NCBI GenBank assembly: GCA_964373795.1 | Contig: CAYJVY010000002.1 | Location: 106,504 to 138,503 of the forward strand | Source: an uncultured archaeon | Lineage (GTDB): Archaea; Iainarchaeota; Iainarchaeia; Iainarchaeales; DATDZZ01 | Length of the DNA stretch: 32,000 nucleotides | Direction: 5' to 3' | Part shown: positions 3,702 to 32,000 of the stretch, piece by piece | Layout of the letters: each line of letters opens with the position of its first letter | Numbering within the stretch: the stretch's first letter is position 1 | The notes under the pieces: model-generated | Seen by the model: the letters and a program-made list of their open reading frames with translations, nothing else | The model's database searches: none | What the model was told of the DNA's origin: nothing | Made by a program: the position numbers and the translations under genes

Positions 3702-3878
3702 ATGGAAACTGTTTCAGTAAACAAACAAGCAATACAAGACTTAGTTAAGGTAAAAGAAGAATTTAATGCAATAGTTGAATCAATTGAATTAATGTCTAAT
3801 AAAGATTTTATGAAATCTTACAATAAATCAAAGCAGCAAATAAAAAAAAGACAATTCGATGATTGGAATGACTTATAA
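3702..3878 (+). CDS. Small antitoxin-like protein (58 aa) upstream of RelE; below the ORF-track size cutoff
   Basis: I hand-translated it as METVSVNKQAIQDLVKVKEEFNAIVESIELMSNKDFMKSYNKSKQQIKKRQFDDWNDL. AGGTGA lies upstream of the ATG. Its stop overlaps the start region of the RelE-like ORF. Confidence 0.6.
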   Translation: METVSVNKQAIQDLVKVKEEFNAIVESIELMSNKDFMKSYNKSKQQIKKRQFDDWNDL

Positions 3879-4116
3879 AATTCTTCCAACTAAAGAGTTT
3901 TCAAAAGACTTTAAAAAGCTAGATAAATTCTTTCAAGAACAGATTAAGAAAAAAATTCAAGAAATAAGCATAGATCCTGAACGCTATAAACATCTTCAAT
4001 ACGAGTTAAAAGGAAGCTCTAGAATAAGGATTGGAAAACTAAGAATAATATTCTCTTACAACAAACAATTACAAGAACTATATTTAGAAAAAATTGTTTT
4101 TGACCATAACTATTGA
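3859..4116 (+). CDS. relE: RelE/ParE-family type II toxin
   Basis: The sequence YKILPTKEFSKDFKKLDKFFQEQIKKKIQEISIDPERYKHL...GSSRIRIGKLRIIFSY...LYLEKIVFDHNY follows the RelE consensus (kdlkkl, dP, riGdyRiiy). The real start may be the ATG at 3868, which overlaps the antitoxin stop. Confidence 0.8.
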   Translation: MIGMTYKILPTKEFSKDFKKLDKFFQEQIKKKIQEISIDPERYKHLQYELKGSSRIRIGKLRIIFSYNKQLQELYLEKIVFDHNY

Positions 4117-5232: not shown

Positions 5233-5937
5233 ATGCCTGCTAGAATGAGACAACACGAAAAAATTCACAATTCTCAAGTAGTAATTGGTAGAAGACTTAA
5301 GGGAAATAAAGATCGACTATTAGATAGAGACAGATTAATAGTAAAAGTTGAAATGGAAGGCGCTAACAAAGGCAGATTAGGGGTTTATCTTAAAGAGGAA
5401 AATAATCTTCACATTACTCATTATGCCGAGGGACCAGATAATTTTCATCTCAAACTTCCTGAACATCAGAGACTTGTTATTCCTAATGCAAGAACTTCTC
5501 CTGAAATGCAGGATGCAATCCATGTAACAAACATTGGGAAACCTCCAAAACATGTCCCTCCAAGAGTAATTTACGATATGTTGAAAGACATGTTTGCTAT
5601 TGCAAACAACTTAAGGGCACAAAAAATAATACACACAAATCAATTTGAGTTTGATCCGATTCCTTTGCAAGGCAATTTTGACAACAGATTACTAGAAAAT
5701 CGTCAACTAGTTGTTGAAATAACAAATGGAAAATATAAAGGTTATATAGGGGTTTATTCACACAATCGAAGGCACTTGGATATAACACATAAGCCAGTTA
5801 ATGTTGAAGGCTTTCACGAAGTCAGCACAGGCCCTGGAGGGGCATTTGGTCCAGTAATTGGCGGAGACGAATTTGTTAACCCACTTCTTATAGGTGCTAG
5901 AATAATCAAAAACATAAGGCCTTCATCGGCTCCATGA
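5233..5937 (+). CDS. Hypothetical protein with an internal duplication
   Basis: Two copies of one pattern are present: RLIVKVEMEGANKGRLGVYLKEENNLHITHYAEGPDNFH and QLVVEITNGKYKGYIGVYSHNRRHLDITHKPVNVEGFH. I do not recognise the family. Confidence 0.6.
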   Translation: MPARMRQHEKIHNSQVVIGRRLKGNKDRLLDRDRLIVKVEMEGANKGRLGVYLKEENNLHITHYAEGPDNFHLKLPEHQRLVIPNARTSPEMQDAIHVTNIGKPPKHVPPRVIYDMLKDMFAIANNLRAQKIIHTNQFEFDPIPLQGNFDNRLLENRQLVVEITNGKYKGYIGVYSHNRRHLDITHKPVNVEGFHEVSTGPGGAFGPVIGGDEFVNPLLIGARIIKNIRPSSAP

Positions 5938-5965: not shown

Positions 5966-6493
5966 TTAAATTTCAAGTTCAATAAAATCTGCGTTTCCTA
6001 AATTAATTCTTTTTTCTAAAATCATTTCCGTGACAAACCATATAGGCCCAGTATGAGTAACAATGCAAACGCTTTCAAATTCAAGGGAATTCAATAAATC
6101 AATAAATTTTGAAAGCCTTTGAGTAAAAGATTCAATTGATTCTCCTCCTTCAACTGAGTAATTCCATTCCTTGATTTTTTCAACTATATCTGGATAATGT
6201 TTTTTAGCCCAATCCTTATTCATGCCAGTTAAAAACCCATATTTATTCATTTCCCTTAAATCATCTCTAAACTCTGAAGCCAGCTTTAATTCGTTTCCAA
6301 TTATTTCAGCTGTTTGTTTTGCTCTTTTCAAAGAAGAAGAAAAAATTTTTTGAATTCCTTTTTCACTTAATTTTTTAGCCAAAATTTTTGATTCATTTAC
6401 TCCTGCAGAAGTTAATTCATCGTCCGCCCATCCACCAAAAGTGTTATTTAAGTCATCTAATGCTTGTCCATGCCTGCATAAAAAAATCTTCAT
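5966..6493 (-). CDS. Histidine phosphatase family protein (phosphoglycerate mutase-like)
   Basis: The N-terminal catalytic motif is MKIFLCRHGQA (RHG). The second catalytic His lies in CIVTHTGPI. The 175-aa size is typical. Confidence 0.8.
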   Translation of the reverse strand: MKIFLCRHGQALDDLNNTFGGWADDELTSAGVNESKILAKKLSEKGIQKIFSSSLKRAKQTAEIIGNELKLASEFRDDLREMNKYGFLTGMNKDWAKKHYPDIVEKIKEWNYSVEGGESIESFTQRLSKFIDLLNSLEFESVCIVTHTGPIWFVTEMILEKRINLGNADFIELEI

Positions 6494-6600
6494 TAAATCC
6501 CTTTAAACAGTTAAAAATTAATAAAAACATTGTCAACTGAACCATCTCACACAAGTAGCATGACATATCATCTTTAGATTGCTTCCAGTCTTGCCTGCTT

Positions 6601-6787
6601 TTGACTCAGCTTCGCCGGCTGCGACGTCTCGTGCGTCGAGCACGAGGGGTCACGTGACCCTTCAGCTGCCGTCTCGCGCGGCAAGCGCAATGCCCATACG
6701 AACACTCAGCCTCGCCGGCTGAACGGCGCTTCAAGGGCTGAACCTTGCGCGGCTGAACGGCGCACGCTCGCCACGTGCTCGGCGAAG
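6601..6787. other. GC-rich non-coding island; candidate structured RNA or foreign/MITE-like remnant
   Basis: I hand-counted 120 of 180 nt as G+C for 6601-6780, against 12 of 60 for 6481-6540. No ORF with a start codon is present. Repeats and hairpins are detailed in the findings. Confidence 0.45.
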
Positions 6788-7486
6788 TTAGAATTCTTTT
6801 AGTTTTGCATCTAATAGTTTTCCTAAGCGATCAGTTTTTTTAATTAAATCAGGAGAAGACTTAATTGATAATTCTTTCAAGTTTTTGAATTCAATTCTTG
6901 TATGAGGGGAATCAATTACAAATTCTTGAGGTTTTGCAGTTCTTAAAACATAGTGTAATACTTTTGAAAGCTTTGAAGTTGAAACCTTTAAATAACTGGG
7001 AGAAATTTTTTCTGTTCCAGTTTTTTCAGCTGTTTCTTTTAAGTCTAATACTCCAATCATTTTTGGGCCGAAAAAAACTTCTTTGGTTTTTTGGTCTTTT
7101 AAAACTGCAATTAAAAAATCTAAAGCATTTTCTTCTTTTTGAAATACATAAGTTGCTTCAGTTCTAAAAGAATCTAAAAACAAGTCAGCTCTAAAACTTG
7201 GTTCTTCAAATCTTTTAATTGTTTTCTTTAAGTTACTTAAATTTGATTCAAGCACTTTAAAATTTGAAATAATGGATGAGTTAGAAATTTCTTTTTTAAA
7301 AGTGTTTGAAAGAGTTGGATGTGATTCAGTTAATTCTTCTAATAAAGAAGTTTTTTCTTGAATGTCTTTTAATGAATTACTTAACTCATTTAAATCATGC
7401 AATAAAGAATTAGTTTTATATAATTTTTTTTCTAAATCAGTTAATGAATGAGTTAAAACTATTTGTTCTTTTTTCTTTTCCTCCAA
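6788..7486 (-). CDS. Hypothetical protein with a coiled-coil-like N-terminal half
   Basis: The 232-aa protein uses a TTG start preceded by GGGGG about 8 nt upstream. Its composition is heptad-like and Leu/Glu/Lys/Ser-rich. I recognise no motif. Confidence 0.5.
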   Translation of the reverse strand: MEEKKKEQIVLTHSLTDLEKKLYKTNSLLHDLNELSNSLKDIQEKTSLLEELTESHPTLSNTFKKEISNSSIISNFKVLESNLSNLKKTIKRFEEPSFRADLFLDSFRTEATYVFQKEENALDFLIAVLKDQKTKEVFFGPKMIGVLDLKETAEKTGTEKISPSYLKVSTSKLSKVLHYVLRTAKPQEFVIDSPHTRIEFKNLKELSIKSSPDLIKKTDRLGKLLDAKLKEF

Positions 7487-7579
7487 AATACAACCCCCTT
7501 TAACCCCATTATATTGTATCTTTTCTTTATAAAAATCTTTTCATTAACTAATCCTTAATAAAAGTGTTGAGCGAAAAAA

Positions 7580-8035
7580 ATGGATAAAGAAAAAAAATTG
7601 CTTTACTTAGTTGCGTTTGCATTTATTGTATTGCTTGTATTAAGTGTTTTACAATTAATTGGGCAAAGAGTTCCAAATGAATTCACTGAAGCATTTCTTG
7701 AAAGAAATTCCTTGCCTGAAAAAGTAAAAGCAGGAGAAGAATTTACTATTAACATGTTTTTAACAAACAATCAAATTCAAGACTTAAACTTTGAATTCTT
7801 TGTAGTAGAAGGAGAGCTAGCAAATGATGTAAATACATTAATAGTAAGAGAAACAGGCTTAATTAATGCAAACATTATTTTGAAAGGAAAAGAAAAAATC
7901 AAGAAAAAAGAAATGAAAAAGATTCCTTTAAAATTAAAAATAACTTCACCTGGAGAAAAAAAGGTTGAAGTAAAATTCAAGCATGAAAAAGAATATTACT
8001 TTCATTCACTGTATTTTTGGACATTAGTTGAATGA
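7580..8035 (+). CDS. Membrane-anchored hypothetical protein
   Basis: It has one N-terminal TM helix (LLYLVAFAFIVLLVLSVLQLI) followed by a beta-rich soluble part. It overlaps the convergent GT-C-like gene by 34 nt. Confidence 0.5.
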   Translation: MDKEKKLLYLVAFAFIVLLVLSVLQLIGQRVPNEFTEAFLERNSLPEKVKAGEEFTINMFLTNNQIQDLNFEFFVVEGELANDVNTLIVRETGLINANIILKGKEKIKKKEMKKIPLKLKITSPGEKKVEVKFKHEKEYYFHSLYFWTLVE

Positions 8036-9477
8036 GTTTCTAAAACCCTTGTTTCAACATCTCCACATAAAATTCCGCCATAACCTATTACTCCAAAAAA
8101 ACAATTAGCATAATAATTCAAACTGTAAACTTTGTTGAATGCAGGAACAAATTTATAGTTTGGAGATCTAAAAGCATCGTCTTCAAAGTTTAAAATTAAA
8201 AATTGTGCATTAGAGTCTTTTAAAAACATGTAATCGCTTGAATTTAAATCTTTTTTTTGCAAAAACTGTAATCCTTGCACTGAAAACTTGTCAGTGAAAG
8301 CCTCTAAAGGCAATCCAGTTAGAGTTTTATTTCCTAGATTAGAGTAAAGTCCTAAGCCTTCATTAAATGCTGGTTCAGCTAAAATCATTCCTTGAACGTT
8401 TTGAGATTCAAGCCAGTTAATTGCTCTTAAATCGTTTAAAGTGATTTTTGCAAAACTAGAAGTAAAATCAACATTTATTACAGAGAAAAATAAAAACAAT
8501 CCAAAAAAAACAATTAATCCAAAAAAAACCCAGAACTTGTTAAACAATTCATTTTTTTTAAACAATACAAGCAATGAAACTATTCCTACACTTAAAAATT
8601 TTGGTTGCTCCCAAGGTCTAAGCAATCCACTTAAAAAAAAAGCAATTGAAGCAAAAAAAGAAATCAATGAAAAAATAAACCAATAAATTTGAGTTCTAGT
8701 GCGCAAATCAAATAAAGATAAAATTATTAGAGGCAAAACGAAAACAATGATTTGAAAAGCCATTACAGGCAAGTAATTAGAAAAATTAATTGCAACAAAG
8801 TCTGCTCCAGAAATTGTTCCAACTGCATTTAATTTAACTCCATTAAATACAAAAAGCCATACAAGTAATAGAACTGCAAAAAAGGGAATGAAGGTTTTCC
8901 AAAACTTTTTTTCTTTAAAAAACGCAATTAAAAAAGGCAAGGAAAACATTATAAAAGCCAAGTAATTCCAAAACAAATTCAAGGAAAGCAAAAGAGAAGC
9001 AATTCTCCATTTATCTTTTAAAGCTAAAACTAAGATTAATGGAAAAACAAAGAAAACAAAAACTTCAGGGCTTTGAGAAGCAGCAGAAATAATTGTAGGC
9101 AAAAAAGTAATTAACAGAGCTCCAACTAGTGATTCAAGTACTCCAACAAATCTTCTAAACAAGAGAAAAAAAGTAACAGCATTTAAGGAACTTAAAAAAG
9201 GCAAGAAAAATAATGCCAAAAGCCAAGAAGAAAAACCTGTAAAAACACTCATTGAAGCAATAATTGAATGATAGAAAGGAGGATAAGTATAAGGAATTAA
9301 AGGATTATCTGGATCAAATTCAGGAATAAAACCTGTTACAGTAATGTTTTGTGCAAGTTTAATATGATAATTTGAATCATAATACAAAGGCATTTGAAAC
9401 ATTAAAATAGGAAGAAAGCGTAAAATAAGTGAAATAAAAAAAATCAATAACAAAATTAATTTTTCAGTTTTATTCAT
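8002..9477 (-). CDS. Polytopic membrane protein, GT-C-fold glycosyltransferase-like (ArnT/PMT-like)
   Basis: The 491-aa protein has more than 10 predicted TM helices. Its first loop is MPLYYDSNYHIKLAQN, and a soluble C-terminal domain of about 150 aa follows. No WWDYG motif is present, so I do not call it AglB. Confidence 0.45.
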   Translation of the reverse strand: MNKTEKLILLLIFFISLILRFLPILMFQMPLYYDSNYHIKLAQNITVTGFIPEFDPDNPLIPYTYPPFYHSIIASMSVFTGFSSWLLALFFLPFLSSLNAVTFFLLFRRFVGVLESLVGALLITFLPTIISAASQSPEVFVFFVFPLILVLALKDKWRIASLLLSLNLFWNYLAFIMFSLPFLIAFFKEKKFWKTFIPFFAVLLLVWLFVFNGVKLNAVGTISGADFVAINFSNYLPVMAFQIIVFVLPLIILSLFDLRTRTQIYWFIFSLISFFASIAFFLSGLLRPWEQPKFLSVGIVSLLVLFKKNELFNKFWVFFGLIVFFGLFLFFSVINVDFTSSFAKITLNDLRAINWLESQNVQGMILAEPAFNEGLGLYSNLGNKTLTGLPLEAFTDKFSVQGLQFLQKKDLNSSDYMFLKDSNAQFLILNFEDDAFRSPNYKFVPAFNKVYSLNYYANCFFGVIGYGGILCGDVETRVLETHSTNVQKYSE

Positions 9478-9600
9478 TCAATTCACTTAAGTCTTGATTC
9501 AATAATTTAGAGAAGAAAAGAATTAAATACTTCATTCAACTGAAAAAAGCAAAGCAAAAAATATTTAAAGAAGCGTTACACATTTAATTACAGGGAAACC

Positions 9601-10674
9601 ATGAAATTACTGCATTTAATTTTGTTTGCATTGCTTTTAAGTTCAATTGTTTCAGCAAATGAAATCAATGCTCCAAAAGAGGTTTCAACGCAAGCTAATT
9701 GGAATTTTTCAATTAAATTAGATCAAACAGATTCATTTGAAGAAACAAAAGTTTTCTTAGATGGAAAACATATTGTTTCAGCTTATTCAAATGCAGTTGT
9801 TCAATTAAATCCATTTAATGGATCGTTTGTTGAAAAAGCTTTTTTAGTTGACCAAGATCCTTCCTCAAATGGGGGGCTAACATTATATGTAAGTTATTTA
9901 GGATTAGCTGAAGGAAGACATAAATTAAAATCTGTTTCCTTGAAAGATGAAAAAGAATTAAATTTTGTAGAAAAAGAAATTATTGCATTCAAGCCAATTA
10001 ATTCAACTTTTGAAAATGAAACTCAAAACAAGTTAGATAATTTAAGTGAATCAGTTAATAAAACAAAAGACGAACTTGGAACAAGAGTTGATTCAACTAG
10101 TAAAAAAATTTCAGGAGTTGAAAGTCTTTTAAAAGATGTTGAATTGAAAACAAGCGAAATAGAAAAAGAAGCAAAAAAAGTTTCATCTATTCAAAACCAA
10201 TTAAATTATTTAACAAGCGAATTAAGCAATGTAAAAAAAGAAAACGAAAATTTAAAAAAAGAAGTTAATTCATTAAAAGAAAACAATCAAAACCCTGTGG
10301 AAAAAGTTATTTCAGCAGTAAACAAAGTAATTAATCCTGGCTCTCAAACACCTCCAACAGCCCAAGTAACAAGCGAATCATTTCCAGTTAATGGATTATT
10401 TATTCCAGTTCTAGCATTAATTGTCGTAGTAGTATTATTATTTGCAATAATTAATCAAGAAAGAATAAATGATTTTTCCAAAAATCTTTTCCAAAAAAAG
10501 TCAAATGATTTATATGGAGAAGACTTGTACACTAATGAAAAAAGCGAAGAAGAAGTGCCTGTAAAAAAAGGAAAATGGGCAGCGGATAAAGAACCTGTTT
10601 TTTCAGATGCAACTAAAGAAAAAGAAAGGAAAAAATTCTTTTTCAGTGCATTAATTAAAAAAGATAAAAAATAA
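9601..10674 (+). CDS. Secreted, membrane-anchored surface protein (coiled coil, N-glycosylation sequon cluster)
   Basis: The signal peptide is MKLLHLILFALLLSSIVSANE. Sequons include NFS, NGS, NST, NET, NLS and NKT, with four of them within INSTFENETQNKLDNLSESVNKT. A coiled-coil region follows, then a TM helix (LFIPVLALIVVVVLLFAII) and a Lys-rich cytoplasmic tail. Confidence 0.6.
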   Translation: MKLLHLILFALLLSSIVSANEINAPKEVSTQANWNFSIKLDQTDSFEETKVFLDGKHIVSAYSNAVVQLNPFNGSFVEKAFLVDQDPSSNGGLTLYVSYLGLAEGRHKLKSVSLKDEKELNFVEKEIIAFKPINSTFENETQNKLDNLSESVNKTKDELGTRVDSTSKKISGVESLLKDVELKTSEIEKEAKKVSSIQNQLNYLTSELSNVKKENENLKKEVNSLKENNQNPVEKVISAVNKVINPGSQTPPTAQVTSESFPVNGLFIPVLALIVVVVLLFAIINQERINDFSKNLFQKKSNDLYGEDLYTNEKSEEEVPVKKGKWAADKEPVFSDATKEKERKKFFFSALIKKDKK

Positions 10675-10697: not shown

Positions 10698-10780
10698 ATG
10701 CAGGAGACAGGAATCGAACCTGCTAAGGCACTAAGCCAACAGCTCCTAAAGCTGCCCCGTTATCCAATTCGGTACTCCTG
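10698..10780 (-). tRNA. tRNA-Leu (anticodon UAG), class II with long variable arm, no encoded CCA
   Basis: The reverse complement folds by hand. The acceptor stem GCAGGAG/CTCCTGC is perfect. The anticodon stem is GCAGC/GCTGT with loop TTTAGGA (anticodon TAG, G37). The variable arm is GGC-TTAGT-GCC. The T arm is GCAGG-TTCGATT-CCTGT, and the discriminator is A. Confidence 0.9.
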
Positions 10781-10802
10781 CAAAAGAAAACCAACACCAT
10801 TG

Positions 10803-12439: not shown

Positions 12440-12925
12440 TCAAGAAAATTTTTTCTTAAACGTATTTAAATCTAGTTCAGTTACTATTGAAAGAGGTTGC
12501 GGTAAAGCATTTAATTTAAACCAACCAATTTCAGAACACTTTAATGGTTCTAAAATTTTTGGTTGCCCGCTTTTTAGTTTTGCAAGAAAAGTTGTTGCAA
12601 CCCAATGCTGTTTTTCTTCTGAAATAATGTGATTTGCAACATGCAAAACTTTTTCCAAAGAAATTTCAATTCCATATTCTTCTCTGAATTCCCTTTTACA
12701 TGCTTCTTCAAGCGATTCATTGAAGTGAACTGCTCCACCTGGAAACTCCCATTTTCCTTTTTCATTTTTTGCTTTTTCTCCGCGTTTTGAGAGAAACACT
12801 TCACCTTTTTCATTGAATAAAACTGCTCCTACCGATACTCCAATAAAATCTTTTCCTGCTCTTCTATGCATTAAAAACCTCTTTAAATAATAATTCAAAT
12901 GATTATTTAACTGATAATTATTCAA
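12440..12925 (-). CDS. NUDIX hydrolase
   Basis: The Nudix box is GKWEFPGGAVHFNESLEEACKREFREEYGIE (G-x5-E-x7-REUxEExGU). The biologically likely start is M19 (MHRRAGKDF, about 12871). The longer form overlaps the DUF5615 stop by 8 nt. Confidence 0.85.
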   Translation of the reverse strand: MNNYQLNNHLNYYLKRFLMHRRAGKDFIGVSVGAVLFNEKGEVFLSKRGEKAKNEKGKWEFPGGAVHFNESLEEACKREFREEYGIEISLEKVLHVANHIISEEKQHWVATTFLAKLKSGQPKILEPLKCSEIGWFKLNALPQPLSIVTELDLNTFKKKFS

Positions 12926-13280
12926 ATTTTCTTACCCTGTAACTACCTAATTTGACAATCGATAAAGAGTTTGATAAATTCTCTAAACCAACTATTGTAA
13001 TAAAATCTTTTAACACTTGTGTGACAGAGTTAGCTTTGAAGTCATGAGGAAGACGCAAAACAATAATGCCGTAATGAGATTTTGGAGGAAATAGCACAGG
13101 ATTTCCAAATTCCAAGTCTTTTGTAACAAGAATGCTTTTTGTCTTAATTGCATGACGTATAATTTCTTTGTCTTCTGCTCTGCCTAGCCCAATATCTCTT
13201 GCATGCCCTGCTTCTAATTTGAGTTCTCTAAATAGTTCAAGAACTGAATAGGGAATGTTTGCATCAAGAAAGAATTTCAT
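12918..13280 (-). CDS. DUF5615-family PIN-like toxin
   Basis: The sequence MKFFLDANIPYSVLELFRE...GHARDIGLGRAEDKEIIRHAIKTKSILVTKDLEF matches the MKFLLDANLP...D.eI...A....lvT.D.DF pattern. It overlaps the upstream DUF433 gene by 4 nt. Confidence 0.7.
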   Translation of the reverse strand: MKFFLDANIPYSVLELFRELKLEAGHARDIGLGRAEDKEIIRHAIKTKSILVTKDLEFGNPVLFPPKSHYGIIVLRLPHDFKANSVTQVLKDFITIVGLENLSNSLSIVKLGSYRVRKFE

Positions 13281-29152: not shown

Positions 29153-29790
29153 TTTCTGAATCTATCTTTCTAATGGTCGAACGTTTGGTAAAGAATGCAT
29201 TAAAGAAGCCTGCTTTGAAAAACGCATTGCCTGGTTTCATCAATGCAAAACTTGTTATTGATGAACTCGCAGAACATTCCGGTTTCTTGGGGTGGGGGTT
29301 TAAGAGAATTATGCTGCCGCTGGCCATTTTTTACGTGATTTTAGGCTTCCTGCTCGGAGAACACGTCCTGGGCTCGCTATTAATGGGAATTATTATTTTT
29401 CTTTATGCCAATTTTCTGCCGGATCTTGATACATTTTTTCAATTCACCAACAACAAGAATAATGAAGTTGGAACGGCAAAAAAGAGGATTGCCCTCTTCT
29501 TGGCTCCGCTGGTAATTTATTATATTTTATCAAGAAGGCAGAAAGGTTGGGGCCTGGGAAAGGACAAGCCATTTCACAACGTGAGGGCTCTTCTGGAGTT
29601 CAGCGTTTTCTTAATGATTCTTGGAAGCATACTTTATTTCTCATTTCTTAAAGCGTTTTTCTTCATGATCTTTGGTTTTAGCGGTTATTGCACTCACCTA
29701 CTAATCGATGGAAAAATAAGCTGGATAAAAATAAAGAGAACACAAACCGCAAAAAATAAAATAAATGCGGATTTCTCAGAGTTGAGTTAA
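29149..29790 (+). CDS. Membrane protein, DUF457/YdjM-like putative metal-dependent hydrolase
   Basis: Several TM helices are present, along with NFLPDLD, PFHN and CTHLLIDG, which resemble the PD.D / H / sHl.lD pattern of DUF457. G+C is about 40-47% in the lines I counted, above the native background. Confidence 0.45.
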   Translation: MISESIFLMVERLVKNALKKPALKNALPGFINAKLVIDELAEHSGFLGWGFKRIMLPLAIFYVILGFLLGEHVLGSLLMGIIIFLYANFLPDLDTFFQFTNNKNNEVGTAKKRIALFLAPLVIYYILSRRQKGWGLGKDKPFHNVRALLEFSVFLMILGSILYFSFLKAFFFMIFGFSGYCTHLLIDGKISWIKIKRTQTAKNKINADFSELS

Positions 29791-30007
29791 GTCATCACAA
29801 CCTTTTTGCAAGCAAAAAGCTTGACCAAAAAGTTCAGCAGGTGTTAAACTTAGAGCATTACCACAAATTTGATGGGCGTTAGCAACGGTTTCAAAAACTC
29901 CCTGTTCCCCGCATTGTAAATGGAAAATAAATAGTTCATATTTTAACCGTTGCTCCGGCGGTCATCAACGAAGCTGGAAACGGCACGGAACAAAGCCGGA
30001 AAACAAA

Positions 30008-30052
30008 CACAAATTCCACAAATTTTTCTTTACATTCACAAATTGTTCTTTA
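30008..30052. repeat. Iteron-like direct repeats (CACAAATT core) in a 540-bp non-coding gap
   Basis: CACAAATT occurs at 30008, 30017 and 30037, and also at 29862. Two extended 17-mers, CCACAAATTTTTCTTTA (30016-30032) and TCACAAATTGTTCTTTA (30036-30052), differ at 2 positions. Confidence 0.6.
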
Positions 30053-30330
30053 TAAAGAGTCGAAGGACAAATAGGCAAAATGCTTGCGAAGGCTGGCATC
30101 AAATGTTACGCTGAAACGTAACAGATTTCCACCGGTTTTGTTACAGTTTTTCTTACCCTTTTGGCGAGGCGTATGAAACAGGCATTTGCAGCAAAAAGCG
30201 CTCATAAAAATCGTGTTTAATAGCCAAAAACAAGTGATGTTCTGTCACTATTGCCTGATTTTGACTAAAAGCATCCAATAAAAACATTAAACTAAACATT
30301 TTTATATACTTTTGTTTAGTATGATTATCT

Positions 30331-31994: not shown

Positions 31995-32000
31995 ATGCGG

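Follow-up and report, generated by a model that had tools for sequence, protein, structure and literature searches.

We analysed a stretch of 32,000 nucleotides (nt) from an uncultured archaeon of the lineage Iainarchaeota (contig CAYJVY010000002.1 of assembly GCA_964373795.1), which in its full length is called the window here. At positions 6601-6787 it harbours an island rich in guanine and cytosine (G+C) and dense in hairpins, placed between two minus-strand genes. Read in the direction of these genes, the first base of the island directly follows the TAA stop codon of an open reading frame (ORF) for a protein of 232 amino acids (aa) at 6788-7486; this contact, at a distance of 0 nt, had already been noticed in a preliminary description of the window. 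We interpret the island as a compound, nested cluster of a dispersed and probably mobile, non-autonomous family of GC-rich hairpin repeats, a reading to which we assign a probability of roughly 0.55.

Composition, architecture and authenticity of the island

The G+C content of the island is 66.8%, compared with 31.1% for the whole window. This is 6.4 standard deviations over the window mean, and the runner-up among 187-nt stretches reaches 49%. A recount of positions 6601-6780 gave the tally reported earlier (120 of 180 nt). The genomic background was measured at ~31% G+C instead of the 20-27% first assumed, and the segment just upstream (6541-6600), described as having 12 G+C in 60 nt, was measured at 42%. 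The left edge of the island is thus a shoulder rather than a step. The shoulder contains a weak copy (10 of 14 positions) of the gene-end sequence 6786-6799, which is not significant. As the best flanking repeat of the window copy it was considered as a target duplication and rejected, with a chance probability of ~0.2 by our own estimate.

Using 2000 dinucleotide-preserving shuffles of the island itself as a chance baseline, we found 10 perfect hairpins of at least 5 base pairs (bp) in the island and 2.1±1.4 in the shuffles, none of which had as many. The longest exact direct repeat measures 14 nt, compared with 7.8±1.1 nt in the shuffles (0/2000 as long). Folding z-scores are -2.2 for the plus strand and -3.4 for the minus strand as RNA, and -3.2 for the plus strand as DNA, with a predicted energy of -98.5 kcal/mol for the minus-strand RNA fold. 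Most of the repeats listed in the preliminary description were recovered as such, namely an 18-mer at 6604 and 6704 (17 of 18 positions identical), a triple repeat GGCTGAAC at 6717, 6736 and 6751, a perfect 7-bp hairpin located at 6628-6646 and an 8-bp pairing between CTTCGCCG (6610-6617) and CGGCGAAG (6780-6787). The palindrome GGGTCACGTGACCC is present as well, with a length of 14 nt instead of 12 (6647-6660), and the hairpin GCACG-N7-CGTGC lies at 6762-6778, one base away from its earlier coordinates.

These repeats belong to a few recurrent modules (Table 1). The one that we named the C module has the form ACTCAG-C-stem-GCTGAA-stem. In its intact copy two hairpins, TCAGCC-tcgcc-GGCTGA and CGCCG-gctgaa-CGGCG, are mutually exclusive. 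An H-type pseudoknot joining them was considered and rejected: judging from the geometry, the connecting loops would be too short, and the two hairpins are therefore likely to be alternatives. Many other neighbouring hairpins of the island also overlap and exclude each other, among them those at 6622-6638 and 6628-6646. The three GCTGAA-loop hairpins of the island carry three different, fully complementary stems, and two GGCTGAAC hairpins (6713-6726 and 6749-6760) show 79% and 83% complementarity with the inverted C-like segment.

The outer helix of the island is the stem of one ancestral C module, split by about 158 nt of nested hairpins. The split arm is comparable to the intact stems TCGCCG/CGGCGA of a related array described below (L066, 3736-3753). 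Between the two halves lie two E-type hairpins, one intact C module and two C-type variants, together with the 7-bp hairpin, the 14-nt palindrome, the inverted C-like piece and the two overlapping hairpins. The closing helix proposed earlier does pair, and its arms are better described as the stem of a split module than as the terminal inverted repeat (TIR) of a transposon. The island is a nested mosaic, the variation of which preserves the hairpins.

Table 1. Features of the GC-rich island and of its immediate surroundings (positions in the window)
Feature	Positions	Strand	Basis or remark
Histidine-phosphatase gene	5966-6493	-	ORF list, Pfam; start 107 nt from the island
Shoulder of 42% G+C	6541-6600	.	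Uncertain whether part of the element
Whole GC-rich hairpin cluster	6601-6787	+ (strand with the ACTCAG...GCTGAA modules)	G+C, hairpins, repeats
Split C module, 5' part ACTCAGCTTCGCCGGCTG	6604-6621	+	17/18 match to the intact module 6704-6721
E-type hairpin CGACG-tctcgtg-CGTCG, loop TCTCGYS	6622-6638	+	
Perfect 7-bp hairpin CTCGTGC-gtcga-GCACGAG	6628-6646	+	
14-nt palindrome GGGTCACGTGACCC	6647-6660	.	
Inverted C-like segment CCCTTCAGCTGCCG	6658-6671	-	
E-type hairpin TGCCG-tctcgcg-CGGCA	6667-6683	+	Counterpart CGCCG-tctcgcc-CGGCG at L025 6550-6566
Intact C module with 5' flank	6696-6729	+	Shared with SMAG_U8205
C-type variant CAAGG-gctgaa-CCTTG	6732-6747	+	Same loop, three stem pairs changed on both sides
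C-type variant TGCGC-ggctgaacg-GCGCA	6746-6764	+	
Two overlapping 5-bp hairpins, GCACG-ctcgcca-CGTGC and TCGCC-acgtgctc-GGCGA	6762-6785	+	
Split C module, 3' stem arm CGGCGAAG	6780-6787	+	Perfect pairing with 6610-6617
Orphan ORF of 232 aa	6788-7486	-	ORF list; TAA stop adjoining the island

An assembly chimera was considered as well. Contigs that Logan assembled independently from the runs ERR3478686 and ERR4904391 agree with the window at 100% identity outside an uncovered centre, L003 as far as 6633, L002 from 6728 and L001 from 6737. Both junctions between AT-rich and GC-rich DNA are thus repeated independently, over 33 nt of the island at its left end and 51-60 nt at its right end. All three contigs end within the island, and positions 6634-6727 are backed by the window's own assembly alone. 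No internal repeat reaches the k-mer length used in these assemblies, and the breaks are hence likely to reflect poor coverage of a GC- and hairpin-rich stretch. Given in addition that the covered left part bears the same module as the uncovered centre, and that related arrays occur in unrelated assemblies (NCBI DATDZZ01 and JGI Ga0209542), we consider an artefact very unlikely.

We consider it similarly improbable that the island is foreign DNA of high G+C content, e.g. a piece of a bacterial gene fixed by chance, an origin suggested earlier to which the excess of 36 points of G+C over background and one reading frame open over 61 codons would lend themselves. Blastn searches against plasmids and phages returned chance-level matches only (at most 23% coverage), and scans of viral contigs gave one chance match and otherwise none. 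A nucleotide match of 100 nt or more to a gene from a high-GC organism, which would favour this origin, did not turn up. A 59-aa frame of the island had no match among 5.8 billion proteins, and the 61-aa frame had no credible relative among 1.8 billion. The one borderline match of the latter (P0122 at locus L089, E = 2e-4) was discarded as a spurious ORF over an unrelated tandem repeat. Furthermore, hairpin and repeat density is well above that of the shuffles, and the sole real matches of the island are in another low-GC archaeon. At L089, positions 130-805 of this marine metagenome contig contain 3.8 copies of a 180-nt tandem repeat, unrelated to the island and annotated as a 224-aa protein that is translatable only with TGA as a sense codon.

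Related arrays in a distant low-GC archaeon

Using the 18-mer ACTCAGCYTCGCCGGCTG as a query, we scanned one genome per prokaryotic species (596 Gb) and collected 70 loci. Sixty-six are single matches, nearly all in GC-rich bacterial genomes, which we read as chance; six sampled loci have 46-72% G+C. The remaining four lie on four contigs of one metagenome-assembled genome of 33-38% G+C, ‘archaeon isolate SMAG_U8205’. In this genome, identity with the window is exact over a 25-26-mer, ACTCAGCCTCGCCGGCTGAACGGCG(C), at window positions 6703/6704-6728/6729, and the match continues beyond it to 33-34 nt at 91-94% identity. The exact 26-mer occurs in L024, L025 and L066 of this genome and in the metagenome contig L081, and the 25-mer in L006 and L079. 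A scan of metagenomes yielded these two sister-strain contigs of SMAG_U8205 (L079 and L081) and otherwise chance matches.

The SMAG_U8205 arrays have ~50-60% G+C, measure 170-400 nt and consist of short hairpins arranged head to tail. An A-type hairpin combines a stem with an NRGA loop and a GA..TC top, and the linker GNRATCYG follows it; variable B hairpins come next. The C module takes the form ACTCAGCC followed by CGCCG-GCTGAA-CGGCG. An 88-nt composite is nearly unchanged in L024, L025 and L066, and its neighbouring modules differ each time. At least seven different stems of A-type hairpins have stayed complementary, with 92.9% pairing and 5 of 7 pairs changed on both sides (0/500 shuffles reach the observed values). 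E-type hairpins, with a 5-bp stem and a TCTCGYS loop, are found at window positions 6622-6638 and 6667-6683 and at L025 6550-6566.

Hairpins of these types are scarce in other loci. GC-rich control loci (483 kb) contain two C-type and five E-type hairpins, and eight other DPANN loci (123 kb, including a relative of 30% G+C) contain none of either type. The loci of geranylgeranyl reductase (GGR) homologues (L083-L086 and L090-L093) have 43-49% G+C, or 30% G+C without such an island or module. The GGR of the window has its best matches in Diapherotrites and Micrarchaeota, at 57-63%, and shares 52% amino-acid identity with the SMAG-type enzyme. The two genomes are thus distant, and the shared 26-mer implies either transfer or strong constraint. 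In our interpretation, the repeat family is present in two or more DPANN archaea of low G+C content that are only remotely related.

The comparison of strains revealed turnover of the arrays and, in the related genome, one flanking duplication. The L024 array is bounded by an exact 13-bp direct repeat, CCTGGTGCCTAAC, which includes the stop codon of the upstream gene. In the sister strain L081, 56 bp are absent, corresponding to one hairpin module and the last codons of the gene. L006 and L079 differ by 3 substitutions in 361 aligned nt, all three within the array. The arrays also adjoin functional boundaries: that of L006 ends at 5807, immediately before the Top6A stop codon at 5808-5810 (0 nt gap), that of L024 is 1 nt from a stop codon, and that of L066 begins 0-2 nt past a tRNA-Ala gene. 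Neither in the window nor next to the SMAG_U8205 arrays did we find a transposase, and the neighbours are housekeeping genes, as expected for non-autonomous units.

Two further observations concern these arrays. ARAGORN calls tRNA-Leu(taa) genes on the strand opposite to the array at L006 5731-5810, L066 3677-3748 and L079 1040-1119, and the Rfam tRNA model has no match at these sites; such arrays can hence give rise to false tRNA annotations. SMAG_U8205 also contains AT-rich perfect hairpin repeats, e.g. CAACTTTTTCTTAAAAAGTTG and CAAACTTTTAAGAAAAGTTTG (L025 6780-6960 and L006 150-290), located between the GC-rich arrays and the 5S rRNA gene and beside tRNA-Cys. They are a second repeat type near stable-RNA genes.

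RNA, 3' element or mobile repeat

The lead of the preliminary description was a structured RNA gene. In Rfam 15 the sole match over the window is the tRNA-Leu at 10699-10781, the G+C content of which (53%) is well under the 67% of the island. A permissive scan of 6400-6950, with E values up to 10, gave a best score of 18.5 bits (chrB-a, E = 0.88), compared with a gathering threshold of 43.9 bits, and no family matched inside the SMAG_U8205 arrays. ARAGORN detected the true tRNA of the window only, and none in the island. The earlier failure to find motifs of RNase P, signal recognition particle (SRP) RNA, tRNA or C/D-box RNA is thus matched by Rfam, and the lead itself, although still conceivable, is unsupported, with no Rfam family and no homologous island with covariation found.

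Several other candidates were tried and set aside. The island has neither the C box nor the ACA geometry of C/D or H/ACA small RNAs. A tRNA half or tRNA-like element was dismissed: GTTCAGCC resembles a T arm, but its loop measures 6 nt, and no model matches. GCTGAAC misses the RYYYAAC consensus of integron attC sites and has no paired R' site. CRISPR arrays have repeats of 24-37 nt and regular, unique spacers of similar length; here the spacings are 100, 34, 19 and 15 nt, and the units are differing hairpins. Of the origin recognition box (ORB) of replication origins only TTCCAGT is present, with no dyad, and a sequencing-adaptor remnant would have just 7 nt (GACTCAG) in common with the 454/Ion adaptor A. 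Lastly, had an element integrated at tRNA-Leu left an att site here, a tRNA fragment would be expected, and the island contains none.

One rival reading, which we regard as unlikely, is a structured non-coding RNA in its own right, or else a co-transcribed array of modular RNA hairpins. The conserved loops GCUGAA, UCUCGYS and NRGA would then be protein-binding sites, with the arrays transcribed from positions downstream of genes or tRNAs. The conserved loops and covarying stems are consistent with this proposal, as are the exact 26-mer common to genomes with 52% GGR identity and the L066 array that directly follows tRNA-Ala with no T-run between them. One substitution between strains changes an A-T pair to G-T in the motif strand, on which wobble cells also outnumber A-C cells by 7 to 3 (hand tally, A3 alignment rows), and the folds are more stable than those of shuffles (z -2.2 to -3.4). 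However, it is the opposite strand that has the more stable fold in five of five arrays. These strand signals are contradictory, and we gave up assigning a functional strand from folding energies or wobble counts. Nor is the orientation to flanking genes constant: in the window and in L025 both neighbours are antisense to the motif strand, and in L024 and L066 the motif strand is the sense strand. Moreover, no Rfam family matches at E values up to 10, the arrays vary in modules and in length (170-400 nt) and change faster than their flanks between strains, and the modules are missing from the 123 kb of other DPANN loci.

The island is also so placed that it could serve the 232-aa gene in cis as a 3' element, i.e. 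as an mRNA stabilizer, a terminator or an insulator before the phosphatase promoter, evolved or co-opted in place. It begins at the first base past the stop codon, its fold is the stronger on the minus strand (-98.5 kcal/mol, z -3.4), three arrays abut stop codons, and the same role is held by bacterial repetitive extragenic palindromic (REP) sequences (PMC3733652). As the primary explanation we find this improbable, but it may coexist with an origin as a repeat. In archaea, termination relies as a rule on oligo-T rather than on hairpins, and our scan found no terminator-like site. In other arrays these modules follow a tRNA or lie upstream of an L21e gene. In addition, the 232-aa gene is an orphan, for which a homologue search found nothing and Pfam gave no match, and it thus offers no homologues with which to gauge the conservation of the element.

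Repeat elements provide closer parallels. In bacteria, REP sequences, the bacterial interspersed mosaic elements (BIMEs) that they compose and REPINs are short, GC-rich, imperfect palindromes, extragenic, located mostly at gene 3' ends and grouped in mosaic clusters (PMC3733652, PMC2817692). The palindromes of REP sequences are short (about 20-40 bp) and GC-rich; here, 10 perfect hairpins with stems of 5-7 bp are found in 187 intergenic nt. Both are mosaics of hairpin types with short conserved linkers, show compensated stem variation, are non-autonomous and could fold in mRNA 3' ends. As for dispersion, there is one cluster in the 32-kb window and at least four arrays on four contigs in SMAG_U8205. 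The differences are the archaeal host, the lack of a GTAG tag in the island, loops that are better conserved than stems, and the absence of RAYT (Y1 transposase) genes among the 30 window ORFs and 10 SMAG_U8205 ORFs examined. CGTC does precede the hairpins at 6625 and 6670, but the geometry of CGTC-REPs (PMC3733652) is not reproduced: the stems of 5-7 bp have no AT at the first two positions, the loops measure 5-7 nt, and there is no CCA tail. Unlike a BIME, each array carries its C, E and A hairpins on a single strand, mostly head to tail rather than alternating; the one exception in the island is the C-like piece inverted at 6658-6671.

Palindromic GC clusters, double-hairpin elements among them, are known from the mitochondrial genomes of yeast and other fungi; those of yeast propagate, cross species, diversify fast, and merge and shuffle (PMC4478555). 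Here too, GC-rich palindromes are conspicuous in an AT-rich genome, with nesting, mosaicism, turnover between strains and sharing across lineages. Evidence for propagation is indirect and comes from the SMAG_U8205 strains only (the 88-nt composite in three copies, the 13-bp repeat and the 56-bp indel). There is no sequence relationship, the domain of life and the replicon are different, and the parallel is thus one of functional analogy.

Miniature inverted-repeat transposable elements (MITEs), also put forward in the preliminary description, are the closest of its alternatives, as the modules are spread over four SMAG_U8205 contigs in mosaic arrays. Related palindrome-associated transposable elements (PATEs) are known in haloarchaea (PMC3119063). 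Like MITEs and PATEs derived from insertion sequences (ISs) of the IS200/IS605 type, the island is small, non-coding and structured and has inverted-repeat ends, and one related array (L024) has a 13-bp flanking direct repeat. The supposed 8-bp TIR, however, coincides with the internal stem of a split module, and the window copy has no significant target duplication. Other differences are the variable mosaics of 170-400 nt, with no unit of fixed length, and the absence of a parent IS, TnpA or TnpB among the ORFs examined. GC-rich islands that correspond to archaeal non-coding RNA genes (tRNA, SRP, RNase P, Hgc, C/D, H/ACA) share with ours the compositional contrast and the strong predicted structure; it departs from them in matching no covariance model, in lacking boxes, in its modular content and in its G+C content (67% versus 53%). 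By analogy, the island thus seems to resemble REP/BIME elements and yeast mitochondrial GC clusters more than it does a classical RNA gene. In full-text literature searches, no elements of this kind came up for DPANN archaea.

If the hairpin-repeat interpretation is correct, the modules would be non-autonomous selfish DNA that multiplies by insertion or duplication of hairpin units, probably as single strands and by means of an enzyme supplied in trans. Modules would merge, nest and shuffle, and might occasionally cross between lineages. The identity of the 26-mer could reflect such a transfer, or else constraint imposed by the recognizing enzyme. Copies would persist only at harmless sites, flush with stop codons or with tRNA 3' ends. 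As a by-product, a copy read from the minus strand would endow the mRNA of the 232-aa gene with a very stable 3' structure, which could block 3' exonucleases or read-through to the phosphatase gene, as bacterial REPs do.

A number of points weigh against this interpretation. The window contains a single cluster in 32 kb of this genome, SMAG_U8205 has in common with it only modules of 26-34 nt and one hairpin of 17 nt, and most of the island has no match in any collection searched. Neither an empty site, nor a significant target duplication, nor a transposase was found for the window copy. The strain comparisons amount to five substitutions and one indel in total, and the A-type set was partly chosen by a hairpin search, which introduces an ascertainment bias. 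Finally, the conserved loops, the covarying stems and the 26-mer equally fit a selected protein-binding motif in RNA or single-stranded DNA.

We tentatively entertain the idea that the hairpin modules, with loops that do not vary and stems that covary freely, are recognition units of an undescribed DPANN system. They might be mobile DNA that targets hairpin loops and moves between distant lineages without a known transposase. Alternatively, they might form arrays of modular RNA that are transcribed together with genes or tRNAs and serve to recruit a conserved protein.

Other features of the window and meaning for DPANN genomes

Elsewhere in the window, an ORF-free stretch of 540 nt (29791-30330) has 40-45% G+C and matches no Rfam family. 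At 30103-30122 it includes a hairpin with a perfect 7-bp stem, TGTTACG-ctgaaa-CGTAACA, the loop of which is similar to the GCTGAA loop of the island. Near it, a 69-nt sequence at 29758-29826 has a copy (94% identical) at L088 1695-1762, just past the end of the window at 32000. The two copies flank the region of an AAA_14/DUF4143 ATPase gene and may be direct repeats bounding an inserted segment of ~2.2 kb.

Between the island and the tRNA-Leu gene (10698-10782), four successive ORFs (6788-10674) have no solid Pfam family, and this may be a variable or acquired segment beside a tRNA gene. Genes of the toxin-antitoxin type are found at 172-594, 3859-4116 and 12918-13280 (PIN domain, ParE toxin and DUF5615/PIN-like). 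In L003, a Logan contig, an intein-containing (LAGLIDADG) ATPase gene forms a single ORF of 866 aa; the window has an in-frame TAA at 2632-2634, where L003 reads GAA, and this splits the gene. L003 and the window show 17 mismatches, several of which fall in 2600-2720 and mostly consist of A/T in L003 and G/C in the window.

On the practical side, clusters of this kind break short-read assemblies, as they did in two runs here, and they prompt false tRNA-Leu calls by ARAGORN, as in the SMAG_U8205 arrays. The rule that a GC-rich island in an AT-rich archaeon is an RNA gene is unsafe. DPANN archaea have tiny, streamlined, AT-rich genomes that are usually called repeat-poor. If our interpretation holds, a family of GC-rich mosaic hairpins in these genomes, common to lineages so far apart, would be an archaeal counterpart of REP/BIME elements and of mitochondrial GC clusters, and it would mark horizontal exchange among episymbiotic archaea.

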